64,000 nt of DNA. It comes from an uncultured Nitrospirales bacterium. GTDB lineage: Bacteria; Nitrospirota; Nitrospiria; Nitrospirales; NS-4. The notes under the pieces were generated by a model. It did not search any database and had not been told where the DNA came from. It saw nothing but the letters and a program-made list of their open reading frames with translations. The stretch is taken from assembly GCA_964472655.1 (NCBI GenBank), contig CAYYLQ010000004.1, positions 1,912 through 65,911 on the forward strand, written 5' to 3'. The first letter of the stretch is position 1. Each line of letters begins with the position of its first letter. Positions 7,746-31,009 of the stretch are shown here, piece by piece. Both the position numbers and the translations under genes were made by a program.

Positions 7746-7821
7746 GAGCCGGTAGCTCAGTCGGTAGAGCATCGCCCTTTTAAGGCGAGGGCCGTGGGTT
7801 CGAGTCCCACCCGGCTCACCA
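7746..7821 (+). tRNA. tRNA-Lys (anticodon UUU)
   Basis: GAGCCGGTAGCTCAGTCGGTAGAGC..., anticodon loop CTTTTAA, GGGTTCGAGTCCCAC T-arm, CCA encoded. Confidence 0.9.
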
Positions 7822-9565
7822 CAAATCCCTCCACACTTTCCGACCTCACCCCACCCCTGTATCTTTTTCGATTCACCTCACATCACCTTCAATTTTCTCC
7901 TGCATGACTTTACGGAGGAGGAGTGGTAGGATTCGAGGACGGAATGAAGAGTGTTGATAAGGGGAGCTAGTTATCAAGTGAGAAAGTGAGGGTAAGTGTT
8001 ATGCCCTACTCGAGATTTGGACAGGTAGTATAGGTCGTGTATGCTCGCAGACGATGATTTTCCTGTTATTTTTCTCGGAGTAGCCGACTACATTCCGCCC
8101 AATCAGGGACCACATCCCTACAACCCTATCGACATATTCCAGCTCTCAAAATTTAAAAGACATCTTATTTTCCCCGTTTCTTTCAAAGGTACATACTGGC
8201 TGTTCCTCTTAAGCGAAAAGTTGTTAGACGCTTCGCCAATGCCATCAATGAAAGTGCGTATTCGCAATAACAAAGGGGAAGAATTGTTAAAAATCGAAAT
8301 GAAGTTAGCTTCAAGATTCGGACCCGCTGAACAAATTTCATCAGATCCTTCTACCGGCCCTCAGCCTTCGCCTGTTAGTTCGCCCAGTTCTTTGGCATCG
8401 ACTCCGGCTTCGTCACAGAGCCAACAGGATACTAGAGTGATAGCACTTCAACCAAATGAAATGATTGCTCCTAAAGGGGTTGGTTGGATCTTAGTCACAG
8501 TCCCTTTTCATGATGATGCAGTAATGATCGAGCCCGGAAAACTTACCATTGAGGTGGAGTTAAACGAAAAATCAGGCACGATTGGGGAAATGCATTATCT
8601 TTATCACAAGGTGCCCCCCTTCACGCCAGAGACTATTAAAGCAATAGAATCTAACCTTACGTCTGTTAGAGCAGTAATAGCACAAATCGGCTGCAAGCAT
8701 TGCACAAGTTTACTTAAAACCTATGCTGCACTACAGAAAGACTCTGACTTGGAAAGAGACGGCCATATTTGGTATTCCGATCTTCCCGAAACACCTTTCA
8801 TTTGCCAGTGCGGAAAATCGAAGCAGCCGCTTCAATACCTAAAGGAGAACTTACATGCCCTTCTCGGGCGAGATAAGCCAGCTTCCAAGCAGGGACATCT
8901 TGATTACGTTAGGCGGTATGCTCACACCGAAGTAATAAAAGTAGTGCAGAGATTTAACGAATTGCTAGACAAACACAAAGACGAAGGAACATTTCAGAAA
9001 TTCATTGAAGAGAACCCGCTCATGTTAGCAATGTTTCACTCGAAAGCGCTTTTTGTTAAACCTAACATACTTGGAAAATTTCAGCCAGATTTCGCCGTAT
9101 TTGATACAAGCAACAGGCTCATATTTATTGAACTAGAAAGGCCCAGCATGAACCTCTTCAAGAAGGATGGTCATCCAACCGCTGACTTATGGCATGCCTA
9201 TGGTCAAGTCGAAGACTGGCTACATGAGTATGAAAAACACCCTGCAGCAGTATTGGAGGCGCTAAAGTTGACTCAAGAAAAAGTAATGGCGGTAAACGGA
9301 GCTGTGATTGCTGGCAGAAGCAGGGGTCAAAACCCAGCACATATCAAACGCCATATGTCCAATCCTGCATACGCCCGCATCCAATTTTTAACACTAGATG
9401 ACCTTTCATCCGCCTTACAGCAGATATCCAAGCAACTAGCTTAAGGATAAAGGCCGACAGAAATCGGTAAGATGCGTTGGTTACATTTGGGTATTGCGAA
9501 GAAGTAGACGCTGGTCCCAGTTATCCCCAACGCCGTAGCCTAATACTCTATCAATTGAGCTACCA
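7822..9565. mobile_element. A+T-rich genomic islet abutting the 3' end of tRNA-Lys (no integrase, no att repeat found)
   Basis: Abrupt visible drop in G+C starts at the tRNA end and recovers at about 9560. Contains a single large ORF (8041..9444). Confidence 0.4.
8041..9444 (+). CDS. DUF4263/Shedu (SduA)-like PD-(D/E)xK nuclease-domain protein with a novel N-terminal region
   Basis: 467 aa. The C-terminal ~170 aa reads ENPLMLAMF..GKFQPDFAVFD..RLIFIELERP..LWHAYGQVEDWLHEY..AVIAGRS..IQFLTLDDL, which matches my recollection of DUF4263. The middle has CKHC..(33 aa)..CQC. Residues ~100-130 form a Ser/Pro-rich linker. No obvious RBS at 8041, so the start is uncertain. Confidence 0.6.
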   Translation: MLADDDFPVIFLGVADYIPPNQGPHPYNPIDIFQLSKFKRHLIFPVSFKGTYWLFLLSEKLLDASPMPSMKVRIRNNKGEELLKIEMKLASRFGPAEQISSDPSTGPQPSPVSSPSSLASTPASSQSQQDTRVIALQPNEMIAPKGVGWILVTVPFHDDAVMIEPGKLTIEVELNEKSGTIGEMHYLYHKVPPFTPETIKAIESNLTSVRAVIAQIGCKHCTSLLKTYAALQKDSDLERDGHIWYSDLPETPFICQCGKSKQPLQYLKENLHALLGRDKPASKQGHLDYVRRYAHTEVIKVVQRFNELLDKHKDEGTFQKFIEENPLMLAMFHSKALFVKPNILGKFQPDFAVFDTSNRLIFIELERPSMNLFKKDGHPTADLWHAYGQVEDWLHEYEKHPAAVLEALKLTQEKVMAVNGAVIAGRSRGQNPAHIKRHMSNPAYARIQFLTLDDLSSALQQISKQLA

Positions 9566-23942: not shown

Positions 23943-24031
23943 GCCGGGGTGGCGGAATTGGCAGACGCCCGGGACTTAAAATCCCGTGGCCCGAAAGGGC
24001 CGTGCGGGTTCGATCCCCGCCCCCGGTACCA
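23943..24031 (+). tRNA. tRNA-Leu (anticodon UAA)
   Basis: GCCGGGGTGGCGGAATTGGCAGAC..., anticodon loop CTTAAAA, long variable arm, GGGTTCGATCCCCGC T-arm, CCA encoded. 89 nt. Confidence 0.9.
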
Positions 24032-24051
24032 AAGGAAAGCGAGAGCCGGCG

Positions 24052-24432
24052 ATGTCGTCAGCAGGCAGGCATGTCGGGCCGTTAGGCAAAGAACGACGGG
24101 TGTTGCCCCGCTACCAGCTCATGCCGCAGGTGGACGTCATCGCGGAAGACGGGCACGAAACCTATTGGGGCGTGCTCAAGGATCTCAGCCGGACCGGGGT
24201 TGCGATCAGCCTCCAGCAGGCGCTGCACTCGAACCAGAAAGTCACCGTGCGGTTTCGCCTGCAAAGCGACGACGGCAGAGCCGTCCTTGAGGAACTGGAT
24301 ACCACGGTGGCCTGGAAGAGCGGACACAACGCGGGTCTGGAATTCATCAAGCCGCTGATCCCGGGCTCGTCTTTTCTCAAAAAGGCGCCTCTCTTGGCCG
24401 CGCACCTCGAAAAGATAAAATCCGGGCGGTAG
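24052..24432 (+). CDS. PilZ domain protein (putative c-di-GMP receptor)
   Basis: RRVLPRY and DLSRTGVAI motifs (RxxxR / DxSxxG). I chose the ATG at 24052 because the longer ORF overlaps tRNA-Leu. Confidence 0.7.
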   Translation: MSSAGRHVGPLGKERRVLPRYQLMPQVDVIAEDGHETYWGVLKDLSRTGVAISLQQALHSNQKVTVRFRLQSDDGRAVLEELDTTVAWKSGHNAGLEFIKPLIPGSSFLKKAPLLAAHLEKIKSGR

Positions 24433-24685: not shown

Positions 24686-25870
24686 TTATTTCACAGAGGG
24701 CCGGGTCATCCGCTGTGGGATCAGCAGGCAGCCCAACCCTTTTAACCCTTCCCACAGCACTGAACCGACTCGGCGGACATAGGAAAAGGGCAGCTGCCGC
24801 CGTGCGGTCAGCCCGTAGCGGAGGCGCATGAATTCGGACGAAGGAACGAGCAACGCAGAAAGATAACGCAATTTCGAACGCATCCCCTTGAGCGCGAAGA
24901 ACAGGGCCAATTCCTCACGTGCGGTTGCGCTCGATGCCCTCGCAAGCGACCGAATGATCCGTGCCGACAGTGAACCGGAGGTCGGCCGGACACGGAGTTG
25001 TACAAACACCTGCGCAGGGATCGGGGAACCGAAGAAGCGCCGCAGCCTCTCCAAAACTTCAATCAACGACGATTCCTGTTCCGCCTGCAGGGCGACCGTC
25101 ACGATCCAAGACCAGTCGAGCCGTGTTTCGTCGCGCCGGATCAGGCGGTCGAGCTCGTAGAACCAGAGGAGCGGCGCTTGCTCACCATGATGGAGCGCAT
25201 GGAAGCAGAGGTGCAGGAGCAGGTCTTCTCGGCCCAGAGACCATGTCTCGATGCCGAGGAACCGCCTCTTGACGCACCGGCTCCAGACGGCGTCCATATC
25301 CACGCTGTCTGCAAAGGGGGGATAGGTAATCGTCCAATGGGGTTCCACGACGATCCAGCCATGCCGGTTTTTGAGGAATCCGAGGGTGTACGAATAGACC
25401 TGGGCAAATCCGGGGCGGTGGTTCAGTTCCCGAAATCCTAACTCGCCCAGCGTGTCCGCGACCCTCGGCAGGTCCTTCTTACGCACCAGAAGATCGATGT
25501 CGCCGGTTGGACGGGCCGTGATGTCGCCGTAGAGCAGCTCCGCGAGGGCCAACCCTCGGATGGGGGCGCAGGCAATCCCGGCGCTCTCGAACGCCCGCAG
25601 CACGGAAGCAAGTTCTTCCGCCAGCAGGAGATTATGCGCTGACGTGCGCACGGTGCTCGCTTTCAGCTGTTCCAGCAGGGCTGTGGAAGGGCGATGGTTT
25701 GGATGGGACTCATTGAACCACCGATAGAGAAGGTGAGTCAGTCCTTGTTGGTCCGCCTCCCTGATGATCTGTTCCCATGCCCGGTCATCTTGGGATTGGG
25801 GAGCGCAGCCTTCGACACCTGTGCTCAGAAGGATGGACATGAGAAAGGGATGTACAGGGGGCGAGGTCAT
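24686..25870 (-). CDS. nucleotidyltransferase family protein (NTP_transf_5-like), lasso-cluster associated
   Basis: 394 aa. GDIDLLV nucleotidyltransferase motif. Its ATG overlaps the kinase stop (ATGA). Confidence 0.7.
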   Translation of the reverse strand: MTSPPVHPFLMSILLSTGVEGCAPQSQDDRAWEQIIREADQQGLTHLLYRWFNESHPNHRPSTALLEQLKASTVRTSAHNLLLAEELASVLRAFESAGIACAPIRGLALAELLYGDITARPTGDIDLLVRKKDLPRVADTLGELGFRELNHRPGFAQVYSYTLGFLKNRHGWIVVEPHWTITYPPFADSVDMDAVWSRCVKRRFLGIETWSLGREDLLLHLCFHALHHGEQAPLLWFYELDRLIRRDETRLDWSWIVTVALQAEQESSLIEVLERLRRFFGSPIPAQVFVQLRVRPTSGSLSARIIRSLARASSATAREELALFFALKGMRSKLRYLSALLVPSSEFMRLRYGLTARRQLPFSYVRRVGSVLWEGLKGLGCLLIPQRMTRPSVK

Positions 25871-26844
25871 AGGTTCGAGTCGGACTTGATTGCCGTAACG
25901 ACTTCCGGAAGGAACGCAAGATCATGCGGATACGACAAGGACTTGACGGGGATGTTCGCAGTCAGCCGGGAGGTCCACTTGAATTGACGCGCGAGCCGGG
26001 CCCTTTCCACGATCACGGGGTTGAACGTATTGGCGATCAGCGCGAGACATGCCCGGCGGTGAGGCAAGGTTCTGATCGTCACGCGTTGTGCGCGGGTTCG
26101 GCTGCGCGGCGGTCTCAGCACGTAGATGGCTCGTAACGGCGCTTCCGCGCGTGAGGAAAGAGGATGGGGCAGGGGAATCACCAGCTTGGGGGTTTCGGGA
26201 TTCATGGGGGTCCCGGCAGCCAGGTGCCCAAGGAGCGCATTTGCGATCTCTGGAAACAGCTTGATGCGGGGAGGGCCAGGTTGGGCGGCGAAAAGACCGC
26301 CGTCCTCTTTGACCACCAGCAAGTCGTCGGTCAAAAGGGAGTGCCCTGCTTGGAGAAAAGCGGCGCCCAGGCTCGATTTGCCGTAGCCGCAGTCCCCCAG
26401 GAACGCCGCCGCTTGTCCGTTCACCTCGACGACCGTCGCATGCAGGGGTTCGATCCCTTGCTTGACCAGAGCAAAGGAGAGGACCTGGCCCAGGAGATAG
26501 GTTTGAAAAGTCTCTTGCGAGGCTCCGTTGAGGGCGCGGCAGGCAATCTGTCGGCCTTCGGCGGAGACCAGGAACTCGAAGAGCCCGGTCCAGCGAAGAT
26601 AGTCCGATCCGTCCGCAAGCCGATCATAGTGGAACCAGGTTGCCGCATCCGGTCCGCTCCCGGCTTTCTTGGAAGCGTCGGAAAAAAGCGAAGGGGGGCC
26701 CTCGAAGCATTCAACGTCGGTCGGGCCGGATTCCTCGAGGTCTTGGCAGGGAAACGGCCAATGGCTCCTGAAACGGAAGCCGTAAAGCCGGTAGGTGCGG
26801 AGAGATCGCCGCCCGCCCGCTGGAATAGCGACTGTCTCAATCAT
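25867..26844 (-). CDS. HPr kinase/phosphorylase-like kinase (lasso-peptide kinase candidate)
   Basis: 325 aa. P-loop GDCGYGKSSLG followed by LLTDDLLVV. Its ATG overlaps the precursor stop (TAATG). Confidence 0.75.
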   Translation of the reverse strand: MIETVAIPAGGRRSLRTYRLYGFRFRSHWPFPCQDLEESGPTDVECFEGPPSLFSDASKKAGSGPDAATWFHYDRLADGSDYLRWTGLFEFLVSAEGRQIACRALNGASQETFQTYLLGQVLSFALVKQGIEPLHATVVEVNGQAAAFLGDCGYGKSSLGAAFLQAGHSLLTDDLLVVKEDGGLFAAQPGPPRIKLFPEIANALLGHLAAGTPMNPETPKLVIPLPHPLSSRAEAPLRAIYVLRPPRSRTRAQRVTIRTLPHRRACLALIANTFNPVIVERARLARQFKWTSRLTANIPVKSLSYPHDLAFLPEVVTAIKSDSNL

Positions 26845-27008
26845 TAGCCGGGTGGGTTCTTGGTATGGGGGTGTCCGCCCCCATCCGAATTGGTTCCTTG
26901 CTTTGCTTTCGTCAGGCGGCGGAGGTCTCCGTAAACTACCAAGCGAGGAGCACGATACAGTTTTTTGCTGTGACCTGCCGTGTTGGGTTTCGCCTTGTTC
27001 GATTTCAT
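26844..27008 (-). CDS. lasso-peptide precursor (A) candidate, 54 aa, not in the ORF track
   Basis: My hand translation: MKSNKAKPNTAGHSKKLYRAPRLVVYGDLRRLTKAKQGTNSDGGGHPHTKNPPG. AGGAGG lies 6 nt upstream of the ATG. The leader fits YxxPxLxxxGxxxxxT with Thr at position -2. The predicted core is AKQGTNSD... with Asp8. Confidence 0.7.
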   Translation of the reverse strand: MKSNKAKPNTAGHSKKLYRAPRLVVYGDLRRLTKAKQGTNSDGGGHPHTKNPPG

Positions 27009-27009
27009 G

Positions 27010-28977
27010 CTATGCCTCCTGATGCGCCATCATTGCCGATTCTGCATGACCGCGTTTCGTGGCCGTTCCGCGGTGGTTGTTCTCTCCAAAGAAAACTTGC
27101 AGCCAGAGTTCTAACGCAAGGAGATCGCCGAGATCCCAGGCAAGTTCGCACCCGGGCCCTCGGATCCGGTCTTTTAATCGTGCGAATTCTTTCCGCATCA
27201 CCTCTGCCTTCAGATATCCCAACCGGACCGCTGCCCCCTCCGACTCAAGATGGTGAACCAGTTGCGGATAGTCCTGCTCCAGTCCTTCATTCACCAGATC
27301 GGTGAAATCGGCCTTCCAAGTACGACGAACGATGGCGTCCGGGAGCACTCCGCGCATGGCTTCGCGCAACAGCGCCTTGGGCACGCCCTTCCAGGTCTGT
27401 ATCTCTCCCGGGATTCCCATCAGAAAGGTGAGGAGGTCACGATCCAGGAAGGGAAACGCCTTCTCCAGCCCGTGCATGGACGCCACCTTGTTGTTCCATT
27501 CCATACACATGACATGATAGCCCGACCGGGCTTCTTCATAGAGGGAGCGGGCATGAACCGTGGGGAAAGCCTTCCTCATGGCGTGTTGTAGTGAGAGGCC
27601 CAGCCGTGTTCGCTGCCGCAGCTTTTCCCCGTACCAGGGACGATCTCGGTGATTGGGTCGAAGCCGGCGAAGGTAGGGAAGGAGTGCGGGAGGAACATGG
27701 TATTTGACGAGTTCCAGGAAGAAGCGTCGGTAGAAACAGCGCGGGTCCGCGTCGGTCAACCAACGGCCGAATTCCTTCAAATGCGAACGGACTTGGCCCC
27801 ATGCCAACCGTCGAAAGAGGTCAACCAGATAGGCCTGGGGGAAGATCACTTGATCGGCCCAGTGGCCCGTCAGAAGCACCCGGGCCCCGCGCTGGCGGGT
27901 GGTCTGTAAAAAGGCGTGGGTCGTGTTCCATTGTTCGTCCAGGAAGGGGACCTCGACGTGCCACATCTCTTCGTGAGATGCCGTCATGAGCCCCAACTTT
28001 CCCCTGGGAACGCGTTCGATCGCGATTCCGTAATCGCGTTCGATTTCCAGGAGAAACGCTTTTTCATCGGATGCCGATCCCTCGGGAGAAATATAGGAGA
28101 GGCCAAGAATGGGCGGGTACCGACCTGGACTGTGCCGTCCCAGGGTTTCTGCCTGGCATAAAATGGAGGAAGAGTCCAGGCCTCCGCTCACGGAGACCGC
28201 AACTGGATGCGCGCTCCGAAGACGGCGTCGAACCGCCTGCTCAAAGTAATGTCGGAACGCTTCAGCGTACTCCTGAAAGGATTGGAGGCGCGTCTCCCTG
28301 GAGGGTTCAAAGTCCCAGTATTGCCGTGTCTGGAATCCCTGAACTGCAAGGATCGCCAGGTGGGCGGGGAGCAGGCTGAATATCCCTGCAAAGCAGGTCA
28401 GGCCCCGACTATCCGGAGCGCCCGACAGCAAACACTCGCCGAGTATCTCGTCGTTGGGTTTGGTGGAGACATGGGGATGGGCCAGGATCGCCTTGATCTC
28501 AGATGCAAAGAGAAAGAGATTCTGGCTCCTGTAATAGTAAAGAGGCCTGATCCCTATTGCATCACGGGCTAACAGAAGTCGCTGCCGCTTGGGGTCGAAG
28601 AGTCCCAGAGCGAAGTCTCCATTTAAACGTTCGGGGAACCGGTCCCCGAAAACTTCGTATGCGGCCATGACGAGAGCGGAGTCGGGAGACGCAGCGGAAA
28701 GCCCCGGGGACGCCTTGAGGCTCGCGAGGAGGTCGTCGCGGTTGTCGAGACGGCCGTCAAAGACGAGCACGGTTCCTGCTGGATGTAGGAGCGGCTGGGT
28801 CTCGGTGGACGATTCAGGGGTAACCCGTAGGAGCTGGCAGACCAGTCCGACTGGCCCCTGGAGACGCAGCCCTTCGCCGTCCGGCCCTCGGTGAGCCAGC
28901 GTTGCGCTAAGACGCGCGAGGACGGCGCGCTCGACCGGCTGCCCATCGAGGTTCCAGATGCCGAGGATTCCGCTCAA
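27010..28977 (-). CDS. lasso-peptide cyclase (C), asparagine-synthetase-B homologue
   Basis: A TTG start at 28977 gives MSGILGIW... (Ntn position, Ser instead of Cys) and overlaps the B2 stop (TTGA). PP-loop SVSGGLDSS. 655 aa. The upstream 68 codons of the ORF track are rejected. Confidence 0.85.
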   Translation of the reverse strand: MSGILGIWNLDGQPVERAVLARLSATLAHRGPDGEGLRLQGPVGLVCQLLRVTPESSTETQPLLHPAGTVLVFDGRLDNRDDLLASLKASPGLSAASPDSALVMAAYEVFGDRFPERLNGDFALGLFDPKRQRLLLARDAIGIRPLYYYRSQNLFLFASEIKAILAHPHVSTKPNDEILGECLLSGAPDSRGLTCFAGIFSLLPAHLAILAVQGFQTRQYWDFEPSRETRLQSFQEYAEAFRHYFEQAVRRRLRSAHPVAVSVSGGLDSSSILCQAETLGRHSPGRYPPILGLSYISPEGSASDEKAFLLEIERDYGIAIERVPRGKLGLMTASHEEMWHVEVPFLDEQWNTTHAFLQTTRQRGARVLLTGHWADQVIFPQAYLVDLFRRLAWGQVRSHLKEFGRWLTDADPRCFYRRFFLELVKYHVPPALLPYLRRLRPNHRDRPWYGEKLRQRTRLGLSLQHAMRKAFPTVHARSLYEEARSGYHVMCMEWNNKVASMHGLEKAFPFLDRDLLTFLMGIPGEIQTWKGVPKALLREAMRGVLPDAIVRRTWKADFTDLVNEGLEQDYPQLVHHLESEGAAVRLGYLKAEVMRKEFARLKDRIRGPGCELAWDLGDLLALELWLQVFFGENNHRGTATKRGHAESAMMAHQEA

Positions 28978-29423
28978 GGGGCGACCTGCCTGATCATCGG
29001 CGCAGACACGAGTGTTGTGAAGCCGTCCTGTTCCGGTTGTCCGAAGATCACGTGGCCGTTGTTTTCGAGCCACGCGTGGGCGGCGAGGGTCTCTGCGTTG
29101 CGTGCGACTCCGATGTGAAGCGTGACTGCGAGTCCACGCCGTCCGAGGAGCCAGGAAAGGACGAGAGCCTGTTTGAGGCATGTGGCTGCGACAGGGTTGT
29201 AACGGCCGGCGACCTCCACGAGCCAGGCCAGGCGCGGAACGGAAGAAACTGTCTCAGGGTGGGGTTCTCGCTCCTTCCGGTCAACATGGGCGAAGAGTGT
29301 GAGGACGCGTGGAAACGGCAGGAGTTGCATGGCCAGTTCCACGAGGAGAAACAGCGTCCAGGCTTGAACGAGGACGAGACGTTCACTTGGCGGGAGTTGG
29401 AAAAATTTATGAAGCCGTCCCAT
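28974..29423 (-). CDS. lasso-peptide leader protease (B2), transglutaminase-like Cys protease
   Basis: Catalytic-type motifs ATCLKQALV (Cys) and AHAWLE (His). Start is either ATG 29423 (MGRLHKFFQLPPSERL) or 29465. Confidence 0.8.
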   Translation of the reverse strand: MGRLHKFFQLPPSERLVLVQAWTLFLLVELAMQLLPFPRVLTLFAHVDRKEREPHPETVSSVPRLAWLVEVAGRYNPVAATCLKQALVLSWLLGRRGLAVTLHIGVARNAETLAAHAWLENNGHVIFGQPEQDGFTTLVSAPMIRQVAP

Positions 29424-29706
29424 TGTAAACTTCGACCAATCCTTTCTCCTGCATTTGGACCACAAGGCTGAAAAGATCTTTTGCGCACTGGGTTTTGGTC
29501 ACCGCATAATCTTCCAGCAATGCATCGAGAATCTTCTCGAGAGACTGCTGTTCTTGGAGCAGATGCCAGATCCTCGTCCCTACCTGGTCGAGGCCGAAAT
29601 AGACGCCGGTATTGAGGTTCAGGATGACCGCTTCTCCCCGAAGATTGTGGGAGAGGACGCCTTCTGGGACTCGCAGACGTGATGCCAGAGAAAGGCCGCG
29701 CTCCAT
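29407..29706 (-). CDS. PqqD-family RiPP recognition element (B1)
   Basis: 99 aa from ATG 29706. ...LRGEAVILNLNTGVYFGLDQVGTRIWHLL... is PqqD-like. The GTG at 29769 lies upstream of the predicted -10 and is rejected. Confidence 0.8.
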   Translation of the reverse strand: MERGLSLASRLRVPEGVLSHNLRGEAVILNLNTGVYFGLDQVGTRIWHLLQEQQSLEKILDALLEDYAVTKTQCAKDLFSLVVQMQEKGLVEVYNGTAS

Positions 29707-29754
29707 GAGCGAGAGTCCTCTAGGTTTAGAGGGCGTCGAGGTCTTGAAGCTAAG

Positions 29755-29783
29755 AAGGTATCCTCTCACTCAACCCATGTCAA
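29755..29783 (-). promoter_or_regulatory. candidate promoter of the lasso operon
   Basis: Minus strand reads TTGACA-N17-TACCTT, about 45 nt upstream of the B1 ATG. Confidence 0.3.
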
Positions 29784-29875
29784 GACTGCGTGGCCCAGAC
29801 ACCGGCCGGAGTAGGACACCGCGGGACAGTTACTCCCGCCTCGCGCGCTTTGTTGTCGTCTCCGCCTGTGTTACT

Positions 29876-31009
29876 ATGGCGCTCATGAGTTTCTGGAATG
29901 ACATTGCGCAGCCGATCATCGGCCTCTCGCCCATGGACGGGGTGACCGACCCGGCGTTCCGGTTCATCGTGGCCAAGTACGGCAAGCCGGATGTCCAGGT
30001 CACCGAGTTCATCAACGTGGACGAAGTCTGTCACGGCGGCGACGCGGCCTGGGGTCAGCTGCACTATGCCGAGATCGAGCGGCCGGTCGTCGCCCAGATC
30101 TACGGCGCCGATCCCGCCAAGTTCTACCGGGTGGCGCAGGTGGTCTGCGAGCTGGGCTTCGACGGCGTGGACATCAACATGGGCTGTCCTTCGAAGAACG
30201 TCTCCGCGCGCGGCTGCGGGGCGGCGCTGATCAAGAACCCGCCGCTGGCGCGGGAGATCATCCGCGCGGTCCAGGCCGGCGTGAGTGATTGGGCGTCGGG
30301 GCACCGTCTTGACGCCCTCGGCCTGCGCCCTCGAGTGGTGGAACGGGTGAACGCGCTCGTGTCTGGACGAACGGGCGCTGGCATGAAGTCCCGCAGGCTC
30401 ATCCCGGTTTCCGTCAAGACGCGTCTCGGCTACGATTCGGTGGTCATCGAGGATTGGGTGTCGATCCTTCTGGAGGAACGGCCTGCAGCGATCTCCATCC
30501 ACGGCCGGACGCTGGCCCAGATGTACCGGGGGCAGGCCGATTGGGGGGCGATCGCCCGTGCGGCCAAGCTCGTCCGCGAGACTCCAACCCTGGTGCTCGG
30601 GAACGGGGATGTGGAGTCGATGGCGGATCTGGTCAGCAAGGTGAGAGACGCCCACGTTCACGGCGTGCTCATCGGGCGAAGCGCGCTCGGCAATCCCTGG
30701 ATCTTTCTCGCCAAGGCCTGGGCCAAGGCACAGGTGAATGACGCGAGGATCGCCGAACCCTTGTCCGACGTTCCTTTGCAGGAGCGGTTCCGGGTCGCGC
30801 TCGAGCACGCCCGCTATTTTGAAGCCCTCGGCGGGGCCTCGCGGTTTGCGGCCATGCGCAAGCACCTGGGCTGGTACTGCACCGGCTTCTTCAAAGCGGC
30901 TGAGGTCCGCGCGCGGATGTTCCGCGCCACCAGCTCGCACGATGTGGAGCAGATCCTCGCCGGGATCGTTACAGACGTTTCCGAGCCCGTCGGCGGTCTT
31001 CCAGCTTGA
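29876..31009 (+). CDS. tRNA-dihydrouridine synthase
   Basis: LSPMDGVTDPAFR, DINMGCP and HGRT motifs of the Dus TIM-barrel flavoenzyme family. I chose the internal ATG. Confidence 0.85.
   Translation: MALMSFWNDIAQPIIGLSPMDGVTDPAFRFIVAKYGKPDVQVTEFINVDEVCHGGDAAWGQLHYAEIERPVVAQIYGADPAKFYRVAQVVCELGFDGVDINMGCPSKNVSARGCGAALIKNPPLAREIIRAVQAGVSDWASGHRLDALGLRPRVVERVNALVSGRTGAGMKSRRLIPVSVKTRLGYDSVVIEDWVSILLEERPAAISIHGRTLAQMYRGQADWGAIARAAKLVRETPTLVLGNGDVESMADLVSKVRDAHVHGVLIGRSALGNPWIFLAKAWAKAQVNDARIAEPLSDVPLQERFRVALEHARYFEALGGASRFAAMRKHLGWYCTGFFKAAEVRARMFRATSSHDVEQILAGIVTDVSEPVGGLPA

Follow-up and report, generated by a model that had tools for sequence, protein, structure and literature searches.

The window, the whole 64-kb stretch of DNA that we analysed, from an uncultured bacterium most closely related to Nitrospirales, carries on its minus strand (24686-29769) a complete six-gene lasso-peptide operon in the order B1-B2-C-A-K-N, in which A is the precursor gene, K a putative kinase and N a nucleotidyltransferase-fold enzyme. 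B1 (29407..29769) is a discrete PqqD-type RiPP recognition element (RRE; PF05402, E = 1.4e-16; NF033536 lasso_PqqD_Bac, 7.8e-18) and occupies the equivalent position in related loci; its ORF starts at a GTG (29769), and an internal ATG near 29706 may be the true start. B2 (28974..29465) is a transglutaminase-like leader peptidase (PF13471, 6.5e-24; NF033537 lasso_biosyn_B2, 3.9e-26, above cut-off), and C (27010..28979) is an Asn-synthetase-like lasso cyclase (PF00733, 1.8e-40; GATase_7, 4.3e-26; NF033535, 3.6e-116). The ORF of C runs to 29181, its likely start is a TTG at 28977 adjoining the B2 stop, and alignments to its homologues begin near residue 66-69. All three hallmarks of a lasso biosynthetic gene cluster, the discrete RRE, the peptidase and the cyclase, are identified by Pfam and NCBIfam profiles, and the product is predicted to be a lasso peptide, with a threaded lariat. 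Further downstream the reading frames interlock: the kinase ATG overlaps the precursor stop (TAATG), and the ATG of N overlaps the kinase stop (ATGA), the second of these overlaps having been noted in the first-pass annotation of this DNA. The operon genes are real, with hundreds of homologues at 45-88% identity that keep the synteny. Scans of the operon for promoters and terminators yielded nothing exceeding chance.

Gene A (26844-27008, minus strand) encodes a 54-aa precursor, MKSNKAKPNTAGHSKKLYRAPRLVVYGDLRRLTK followed by AKQGTNSDGGGHPHTKNPPG and the stop codon, and its ATG is preceded 7 nt upstream by AGGAGG. The 34-aa leader (26907..27008) bears the motif YxxPxL...G....LT(-2)K, matches NF033521 lasso_leader_L3 at 22.2 bits (cut-off 19), and is conserved in 75 + 120 relatives. 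Around the predicted leader/core boundary the precursor reads LYRAPRL...LTK/AKQGTNSD (the slash separates leader from core), combining the YxxPxL motif and Thr(-2) of lasso precursors with an Asp at core position 8, inside the range of positions 7-9 expected for the Asp/Glu. The core (26844..26906 with the stop) is predicted to form an Ala1-Asp8 ring; among 65 related cores, position 8 is D/E in 53 and position 1 is A or G in 48. Once Thr(-2) is assigned to the leader and Ala1-Asp8 to the ring, just three hydroxyl residues are left in the core: Thr5 and Ser7, both in the ring, and Thr15 in the tail. The precursor ends ...HPHTKNPPG and thus has no C-terminal Ser. The first-pass annotation had read both the ending and the three hydroxyls correctly; its list of leader hydroxyls (S3, T10 and S14) was right as far as it went and left out Thr33, the universal Thr(-2). 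Thr15 (codon ACC, 26862-26864), the predicted phospho-acceptor, sits in a P-x-T-K motif, Pro13-His14-Thr15-Lys16 (26859..26870). We found no second lasso-type precursor, Ser-terminated or otherwise, in the 64-kb window.

K (25867..26844, minus strand) is a 325-aa HprK-like RiPP kinase whose matches to curated profiles fall below threshold (PF07475, 24.4 bits against a cut-off of 33.3; TIGR04352 HprK_rel_A, 2e-09 and 37 bits against 200) because the family is too divergent for PF07475 and the NCBIfam HprK-related models. At profile level, K and its homologues are best named after the ScmC / HprK_rel_A proteins (PF27840, TIGR04249, TIGR04352) of SynChlorMet/GeoRSP cassettes, which also partner PqqD-like proteins, but K scores far under the curated cut-offs (37 vs 200 bits; 19 vs 125 bits), its homologues match PF27840 (ScmC) weakly or faintly, and those cassettes contain radical-SAM enzymes and no lasso cyclase. 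We know of no functional characterisation of these proteins. The catalytic motif of K, His ... G-x-x-G-x-G-K-S/T ... D-D, is complete: H135, G150/153/155, K156, S157 and D173/D174 fit the lasso-kinase motif (PMC10368454), with the P-loop (G150-S157) encoded at 26374-26397 and D173-D174 at 26323-26328, and none of the catalytic H, K, S, D and D varies among 91 homologues. An AF2 model (pLDDT 87, pTM 0.87) has the HprK/PEPCK-type P-loop fold, its best Foldseek matches in the PDB being 3tqf, 1knx and 1kkm (HprK/P) and ATP-PEPCK, at probability 1.00; a PDB profile search with K returned no solved RiPP kinase structure, HprK/P alone matching, and weakly. Judged by its intact catalytic residues and the confident fold model, K looks active.

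The last gene, N (24686..25870, minus strand), encodes a 394-aa nucleotidyltransferase-fold enzyme of PF14907 (E = 7e-50, 170 bits, cut-off 31.2). A set of 20 homologues shows no variation at R105, G106, G123, D124, D126, E176, P177, H178 or W179, among them the catalytic DxD (G123-D124-I125-D126, with D124-x-D126 encoded at 25493-25501) and E176. N, too, looks active in view of this retained G...DxD...E signature; its structure model is poor (pLDDT 62, below 50 in the catalytic region). The proposal of the first-pass annotation that kinase and nucleotidyltransferase work together gains support from gene context, as K-N adjacency or overlap recurs, most loci with sufficient flank include N, and the PsmK/PsmN pair offers a precedent (PMC6993621). 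PsmN places a hexose on the phosphoserine made by PsmK, requires that phosphate and is inactivated by D134A/D136A, the equivalents of D124/D126 in N, a function that rests on in vivo MS in one study (PMC6993621). Activity of LppN, another such partner enzyme, was not detected (PMC13381572).

We compared the core with those of related loci, using a first set of 65 unique cores next to K homologues and an enlarged set of 171 unique cores that also takes in 116 unique cores recovered by searching with a precursor profile; the latter leans towards motif-bearing cores because the query profile contained the P-x-[ST]-[KR] motif. The clade, with at least 171 distinct cores, extends over Nitrospirota, Methylomirabilota/Rokubacteria, Acidobacteriota and other uncultured groups. 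A comparison of the neighbours' precursor C-termini, which the first-pass annotation had proposed, found a C-terminal Ser in 6/171 unique related cores and in 3/65 of those beside K homologues. Kinases paired with precursors ending ...HFTS, and hence in Ser, fall into a deep clade of their own, in which the gene order differs.

The tail holds the one conserved hydroxyl position of these cores. [ST][KR] occurs in 60 of the 65 tails, against 22.6 +/- 3.6 (maximum 35) in 2000 shuffles, and lies 6-8 residues past the ring Asp/Glu in 53/60, with a usual spacing of about seven. The enlarged set has it in 166/171 unique cores, with Thr in 136, Ser in 30 and no other residue, and with Pro at -2 in 150/166; that the position is solely Ser/Thr in the 166 motif-bearing cores suggests that selection retains the hydroxyl itself. 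All of the best 120 precursor-profile matches carried the motif, even with motif-less relatives being sought. Thirteen cores possess a single hydroxyl, which is the motif residue in 11 and the homologous Thr in a twelfth. At the closest relative, L105 (K 88% and N 86% identical, gene overlaps identical), the core reads AKQGGNADGAGHPRTKNPPG, so that both ring hydroxyls are absent and Thr15 is the sole core hydroxyl. Two loci (L009 and L052) encode two precursors, both of which keep the motif, and K lies directly 3' of A in 8/9 contexts seeded from precursors.

For the characterised members of the kinase family, the first-pass annotation took a C-terminal Ser as the acceptor, a background that newer work has overtaken: BsfK (2023) phosphorylates Ser3 in the ring of an Asp-terminated precursor whose cluster likewise encodes an N (PMC10368454), and LppK (2026) phosphorylates Ser3 in a linear peptide (PMC13381572). 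Paeninodin-type systems of Bacillota (PadeK, ThcoK, BaceK, PapoK) resemble the window in having an HprK-like kinase beside the precursor in a lasso cluster, with the His / GxxGxGKS / DD motif and a linear precursor as substrate, and their kinases are ~29-43% identical to K over the ~95-residue catalytic core; the identities to PadeK, ThcoK, SyanK and BsfK are approximate, as they come from ~95-105-residue fragments of a machine-read supplementary alignment. However, the gene order there is C-A-K-B1-B2-D, an ABC exporter is present, and the acceptor is a strictly conserved C-terminal Ser, whereas the window core ends in Gly. SyanK/SyanA of Sphingobium yanoikuyae, a polyphosphorylated proteobacterial lasso system, shares with the window a Gram-negative host, the leader YxxPxL...LT and a similar kinase block (...AAFL.AGH.LLTDDLL..., approximately 41% identity to K over the catalytic core), but SyanA has the ending ...ELTFS, whose Ser is the phosphorylated residue.

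The pseudomycoidin cluster of Bacillus pseudomycoides likewise pairs a kinase with a PF14907-type enzyme, PsmN, which is DxD-dependent and acts on the phosphorylated peptide; N of the window keeps the DxD. It differs in its C-terminal Ser acceptor and in the psmN gene, which lies between B2 and D and is not fused to K, and its phospho-hexose chemistry was seen in E. coli only. BsfK/BsfN of Bradymonas sediminis comes close in another respect, with a precursor lacking a C-terminal Ser in a cluster containing K, N, B1, B2 and C; BsfK, approximately 35% identical to K over the catalytic core, demonstrates that neither an internal site nor a Thr is beyond the reach of the family, and it is stimulated by B1. 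Yet its acceptor is at core position 3 and its leader has Ile(-2), whereas the window has Gln3 (Gly in 43/65 relatives) in place of Ser/Thr and Thr(-2), shared with nearly all relatives, in place of Ile/Val. LppK/LppN of Bacillota reuse the module of HprK-like kinase, NTP-transferase and discrete RRE for linear polyphosphorylated peptides, without cyclase or B2; there a signal-peptidase-like enzyme cuts the leader, and the Ser3 acceptor cannot be replaced by Thr.

The balance of evidence tilts, though not heavily, towards a six-gene lasso operon in which K targets Thr15 while the precursor is still linear and N builds on the phosphate that K installs. We infer that B1 binds the precursor leader and that K, translationally coupled to the precursor gene, would phosphorylate Thr15 within P-x-T-K, seven residues past Asp8. 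N, coupled in turn to K, would elaborate the Thr15 phosphate with one or two hexoses, by analogy with PsmN, or with a nucleotidyl group; B2 would then remove the leader and C would join Ala1 to Asp8, closing the ring around the tail. The bulk of the phospho-adduct, together with Lys16, may help to lock the threaded tail in a Gly/Ala/Pro-rich core of small residues. Published work is consistent with several of these steps: lasso kinases use linear precursors, B1 speeds the reaction and Thr can replace Ser for BsfK (PMC10368454), and bulky C-terminal adducts have been proposed as a topological lock (PMC6993621). What counts against Thr15 is that the experimentally mapped sites of the family are all a C-terminal Ser or Ser3, none of them tail-internal, and that LppK rejects Thr (PMC13381572), whereas Thr is the majority residue in the window clade. 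One locus, L101, also counts against it, with a motif-bearing precursor beside a cyclase and without K, N, B1 or B2 nearby.

Among the papers accessible to us, we found none that describes an acceptor Thr inside the tail. Few natural products are phosphorylated, and just two acceptor positions, C-terminal Ser and Ser3, are known for this kinase family; if the Thr15 reading is true, the conserved tail-internal Thr/Ser-Lys/Arg would be a third, and a simple sequence rule would predict the modified residue in more than 100 cryptic clusters of uncultured soil and groundwater bacteria. Such a site would also offer a new handle for lasso engineering, including tests of modification as a topological lock. 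We regard as rather doubtful the broad form of this claim, in which the tail-internal Thr/Ser of P-x-[S/T]-[K/R], at a set spacing from the ring, is the third phosphorylation site across a large clade and the phospho(-glycosyl/-nucleotidyl) group installed by K and N is a steric plug that keeps a tail of small residues threaded; the lasso lock would then be made by post-translational modification instead of bulky side chains. For the window itself, the most likely outcome predicted from its genes is that a lasso kinase and an N-like enzyme decorate the conserved tail Thr15, a variant of a known modification. The compact, tightly coupled A-K-N module would also be a convenient system for defining PF14907 partner chemistry.

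NMP transfer to hydroxyl groups is common among nucleotidyltransferase-fold enzymes, which counts for another division of labour, in our view unlikely, in which N modifies Thr15 directly by O-nucleotidylylation or O-glycosylation and K acts on the adduct, on a sugar/nucleotide donor or on a non-peptide substrate. The fold of K is as close to PEPCK as to HprK, the nearest reported structural match of PsmN is to aminoglycoside nucleotidyltransferases, and its authors could not exclude that PsmN merely makes the substrate of a host glycosyltransferase (PMC6993621). Against this, every characterised member of the family of K phosphorylates the peptide itself, PsmN products were confined to already phosphorylated peptide (PMC6993621), and the stop/start overlap with the precursor gene belongs to K, not N. 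We give a still lower chance to P-x-[ST]-[KR] being purely a structural or bioactivity determinant, with K and N modifying any available hydroxyl or being dispensable. The wider loop D-G-x-G-x-P-x-[ST]-[KR] is conserved as a unit, not Thr alone, so the Thr might owe its retention to folding, threading or target binding and not to modification, a point that also weighs against the Thr15 reading; moreover, paeninodin-type kinases show little sequence specificity past the acceptor, and L101 has the motif without K. The 11 cores in which the motif residue is the sole available hydroxyl, the recurrent position of K after A and the invariant catalytic residues of K and N all argue against such a reading.

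The suggestion of the first-pass annotation that the kinase modifies an internal residue gains support from the comparative data, which point to Thr15 over the ring residues. That K acts on ring Thr5 or Ser7 has a precedent in BsfK, whose K- and N-containing lasso cluster likewise has a precursor without a C-terminal Ser (PMC10368454), and both residues are present in the window core, but we rejected these poorly conserved sites as improbable: across the 171 cores S/T occupies position 5 in 36%, position 7 in 22% and position 3 in 2%, 57/171 have no S/T/Y in residues 1-7, and the corresponding pairs in the two closest relatives are G5/A7 and A5/A7, while the catalytic residues of K are invariant family-wide even so. 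Leader targets, which the first-pass annotation had also raised, fared worse and are very improbable. A modification of S3, T10 or S14 would be lost with the leader or serve as a processing signal; lasso kinases do bind leader-containing precursors, and the three closest precursors all retain leader Ser3, but T10 is replaced by M or K and S14 by G in close relatives, the leader N-termini vary in length and sequence and are unalignable across the family, with Thr(-2) the sole common hydroxyl position, and leader modification is not known for any RiPP kinase of this family. Finally, we discarded as next to impossible a sequencing or assembly error of the kind that made the published psmA end in Asn through one wrong base in its final codon (PMC6993621): five independent contigs encode the identical 54-aa product and 165/171 related cores likewise lack a C-terminal Ser, so its absence characterises the clade as a whole.

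The window carries a complete lasso operon on the minus strand, where six tightly packed, co-directional ORFs run from 29769 to 24686. They encode a PqqD-type recognition element (B1, 29407-29769; PF05402, E = 1.4e-16), a transglutaminase-like peptidase (B2, 28974-29465; NF033537, E = 3.9e-26, above cut-off), an Asn-synthetase-like cyclase (C, 27010-28979; PF00733, E = 1.8e-40; NF033535, E = 3.6e-116), a 54-aa precursor (A, 26844-27008; NF033521 lasso leader, above cut-off), a 325-aa HprK-like protein (K, 25867-26844) and a 394-aa PF14907 protein (N, 24686-25870; E = 7e-50). TTG at 28977 is the likely start of C, whose frame stays open up to 29181. Gene A has a Shine-Dalgarno sequence (AGGAGG), its stop overlaps the start of K (TAATG), and the stop of K overlaps the start of N (ATGA). 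A divergent ORF (29612-31009) lies upstream of the operon; a convergent PilZ-domain ORF (23986-24432) and a tRNA-Leu gene (23943-24031) lie downstream. The operon (24686-29769) contains neither an ABC exporter (D gene) nor an isopeptidase: genes for export or self-immunity must lie at another site, unless the product works intracellularly.

The precursor consists of the leader MKSNKAKPNTAGHSKKLYRAPRLVVYGDLRRLTK followed by the core AKQGTNSDGGGHPHTKNPPG. Given the canonical Thr(-2), the core begins at Ala1 with Asp8 as ring acceptor; its hydroxyl residues are Thr5, Ser7 and Thr15, and it ends in Gly. This bears out the first-pass annotation, which had noted K and N beside a core without C-terminal Ser and had named a second, Ser-terminated precursor as potential counter-evidence; no other precursor of lasso type occurs in the 64-kb window. 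The peptide has neither the C-terminal Ser that defines precursors of the paeninodin/SyanK type nor the Ser/Thr3 and Ile(-2) that define the BsfK type. The annotation's background, that characterised kinases phosphorylate the C-terminal Ser, is by now incomplete. BsfK (2023; Bradymonas sediminis) places its phosphate on ring Ser3; the precursor there ends in Asp and the cluster encodes N too (PMC10368454); LppK (2026) acts on Ser3 of a linear peptide, in work that calls the K-N pair typical secondary-modification machinery (PMC13381572). Given these precedents, it is no surprise in itself that a K/N lasso cluster should lack a C-terminal Ser; the general phenomenon has been seen before.

Judged by their conserved residues, both enzymes are catalytically intact. 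K matches PF07475 (24.4 bits, cut-off 33.3) and TIGR04352 (E = 2e-09) weakly; in its features it fits the wider family of HprK-like RiPP kinases. Its lasso-kinase catalytic motif is complete (H135, G150, G153, G155, K156, S157, D173 and D174; in BsfK, H148-G163-G166-G168-K169-S170-D186-D187, PMC10368454), and none of the 91 full-length homologues extracted departs from the catalytic His, Lys, Ser and Asp-Asp residues. A confident AlphaFold2 model of K (pLDDT 87, pTM 0.87) best matched HprK/P (3tqf, 1knx, 1kkm) and PEP carboxykinases of the ATP-dependent kind, and a PDB search yielded no structure of a RiPP kinase. Across the catalytic core, K and the characterised kinases are about 29-43% identical, an approximate range taken from machine-read fragments. 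Among the candidates scored, 1766 were homologues at E <= 0.001, the best 120 of them 56-100% identical to K. Precomputed annotation assigns K homologues (e.g. at related loci L102, 8137-9165, and L105, 1937-2914) to the recent Pfam family PF27840 'ScmC' (SynChlorMet cassette protein C), and this suggests a wider partnership of HprK-like proteins with PqqD-type RiPP recognition elements. N has the features of the PF14907 family. Its structure model was too poor for use (pLDDT 62). R105, G106, G123, D124, D126, E176, P177, H178 and W179 are invariant across 20 homologues; the PsmN mutant corresponding to D124/D126 (D134A/D136A) is inactive (PMC6993621).

Loci encoding K homologues (19 genomic, 80 metagenomic) were fetched, with named sources among MAGs of Methylomirabilota/Rokubacteria, Nitrospirota, Acidobacteriota (Vicinamibacterales, Terriglobia), Desulfobaccales, Gemmatimonadota and Verrucomicrobiota. 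Nearly all with enough flank are lasso clusters, most commonly in the window's order, B1-B2-C-A-K-N. This K-seeded set gave 75 precursors and 65 unique short cores, and a profile search with the precursors added 120 peptides, for 171 unique cores combined. C-terminal Ser occurs in 3/65 and 6/171, respectively. In its stead, one hydroxyl position, Thr15 in the window, is conserved clade-wide. It lies in a tail motif, [S/T]-[K/R] (Thr15-Lys16 in the window), present in 60 of the 65 K-seeded cores versus 22.6 +/- 3.6 (maximum 35) for shuffled tails in 2000 trials; 52 have the fuller P-x-[S/T]-[K/R]. The site lies seven residues after the ring Asp/Glu in 35 of these cores and six to eight after it in 53. 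All 120 precursor-seeded peptides carry the motif, a set biased towards it by a search profile that itself contained it, as do 166/171 combined cores (Thr in 136, Ser in 30; Lys in 87, Arg in 79; Pro at -2 in 150). Both precursors keep it at the two-precursor loci L009 and L052.

Contexts seeded from precursors and not from K place K directly after A in eight of nine. The exception, a Planctomycetes MAG contig (L101, JACQVV010000199.1), has the motif-bearing precursor SKAGTKSDGGGAKPNTRLAGGPT beside a cyclase; B1, B2, K and N are absent from the stretch seen, leaving only C and A, and the cluster is split or decayed. In a neighbour-joining tree of K, kinases with ...HPN[KR]HFTS precursors, which end in Ser, form a separate deep clade (containing L019 and L090, with L094-L096 and L099 grouping with them); where flank shows, its gene order is different too, with K preceding C and the precursor following C.

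On balance we favour Thr15 as the acceptor of K, with little more than even confidence, which partly supports the earlier interpretation and sharpens its suggestion of an internal residue. In the closest relative, L105 (K 88% and N 86% identical, gene overlaps identical to the window), the core AKQGGNADGAGHPRTKNPPG lacks Thr5 and Ser7, and Thr15 is its sole hydroxyl; the core of the second-closest relative, whose K is 77% identical, is AKAGAAADGAGKPKTKTPPA. The only hydroxyl is the motif residue in 11 of 13 single-hydroxyl cores and the homologous Thr of P-L-T-M in a twelfth. A ring site, as in BsfK, is an unlikely rival: Ser/Thr occupies ring positions 1-7 in 8, 6, 2, 4, 36, 8 and 22% of the 171 cores, with 57 having no hydroxyl in those residues. 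A purely structural motif is a further, less likely rival. N might modify the peptide directly while K acts elsewhere, yet the PsmN product (+162 Da once or twice) forms solely on phosphorylated peptide (PMC6993621), and by that analogy N would cooperate with K, as also suggested at first pass. The leader offers hydroxyls too, but T10 and S14 are lost even in the window's close relatives. Sequence error had to be checked because psmA was first mis-sequenced in precisely its last codon (PMC6993621), and is ruled out here by an identical peptide on five contigs and a family-wide trait.

With Thr15 as the putative acceptor, K would phosphorylate the linear, leader-bearing precursor aided by B1, as PadeK/ThcoK and BsfK do (BsfK: PMC10368454); BsfK accepts Thr (PMC10368454). 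N would next modify the phosphate in the manner of PsmN, and B2 and C would complete the lasso. More speculatively, since the site-ring spacing is fixed, a basic residue follows the site and the tail otherwise consists of small residues (Gly/Ala/Pro), the ring may be flanked by the modified Thr and the Lys/Arg, which would serve as a lock, an idea that Zyubko et al. put forward for adducts at the C-terminus (PMC6993621). Neither a tail-internal acceptor nor a P-x-[S/T]-[K/R] family was found in the literature searched, including a 2026 review, and the family-wide motif makes a sharp, cheap-to-test prediction for well over 100 cryptic clusters from uncultured phyla.

Related loci vary in several respects. 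L058 has the only K-linked core without a tail hydroxyl (GGEALEGTEAPVQEPRHN) and no N gene within 2.5 kb downstream; its kinase keeps all catalytic residues, a combination that the Thr15 model leaves unexplained. Some loci have two tandem C genes (L001, 1509-5848; L015, 2035-5780), with the L001 precursor between them. In L089 (from 2371) and L091 (from 1821), a precursor-like ORF does not stop after its core, GGKGRFADTGGSGSHTR, but continues as a hydrophobic stretch of ~85 residues; fusion, read-through or loss of the stop codon could each account for it. A class-I SAM methyltransferase adjoins K in L102 (9120-9947) and L107 (8116-8955), where N, B2 and B1 are on the opposite strand. Their cores belong to a ...PAT[KR]K type that Vicinamibacterales MAGs share, and this sub-clade may carry an extra modification, e.g. 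methylation. Two further contexts, P0357 and P0312, have a methyltransferase-type gene near K, on the same strand in P0357.

Elsewhere in the window, a 467-aa ORF (8041-9444, plus strand) that matches the C-terminal nuclease domain of Shedu SduA (PF14082, E = 1.6e-16) directly follows a tRNA gene (7746-7818) in the only low-GC stretch (0.48 versus ~0.62), and the region has the look of a small defence island against phage that was acquired.
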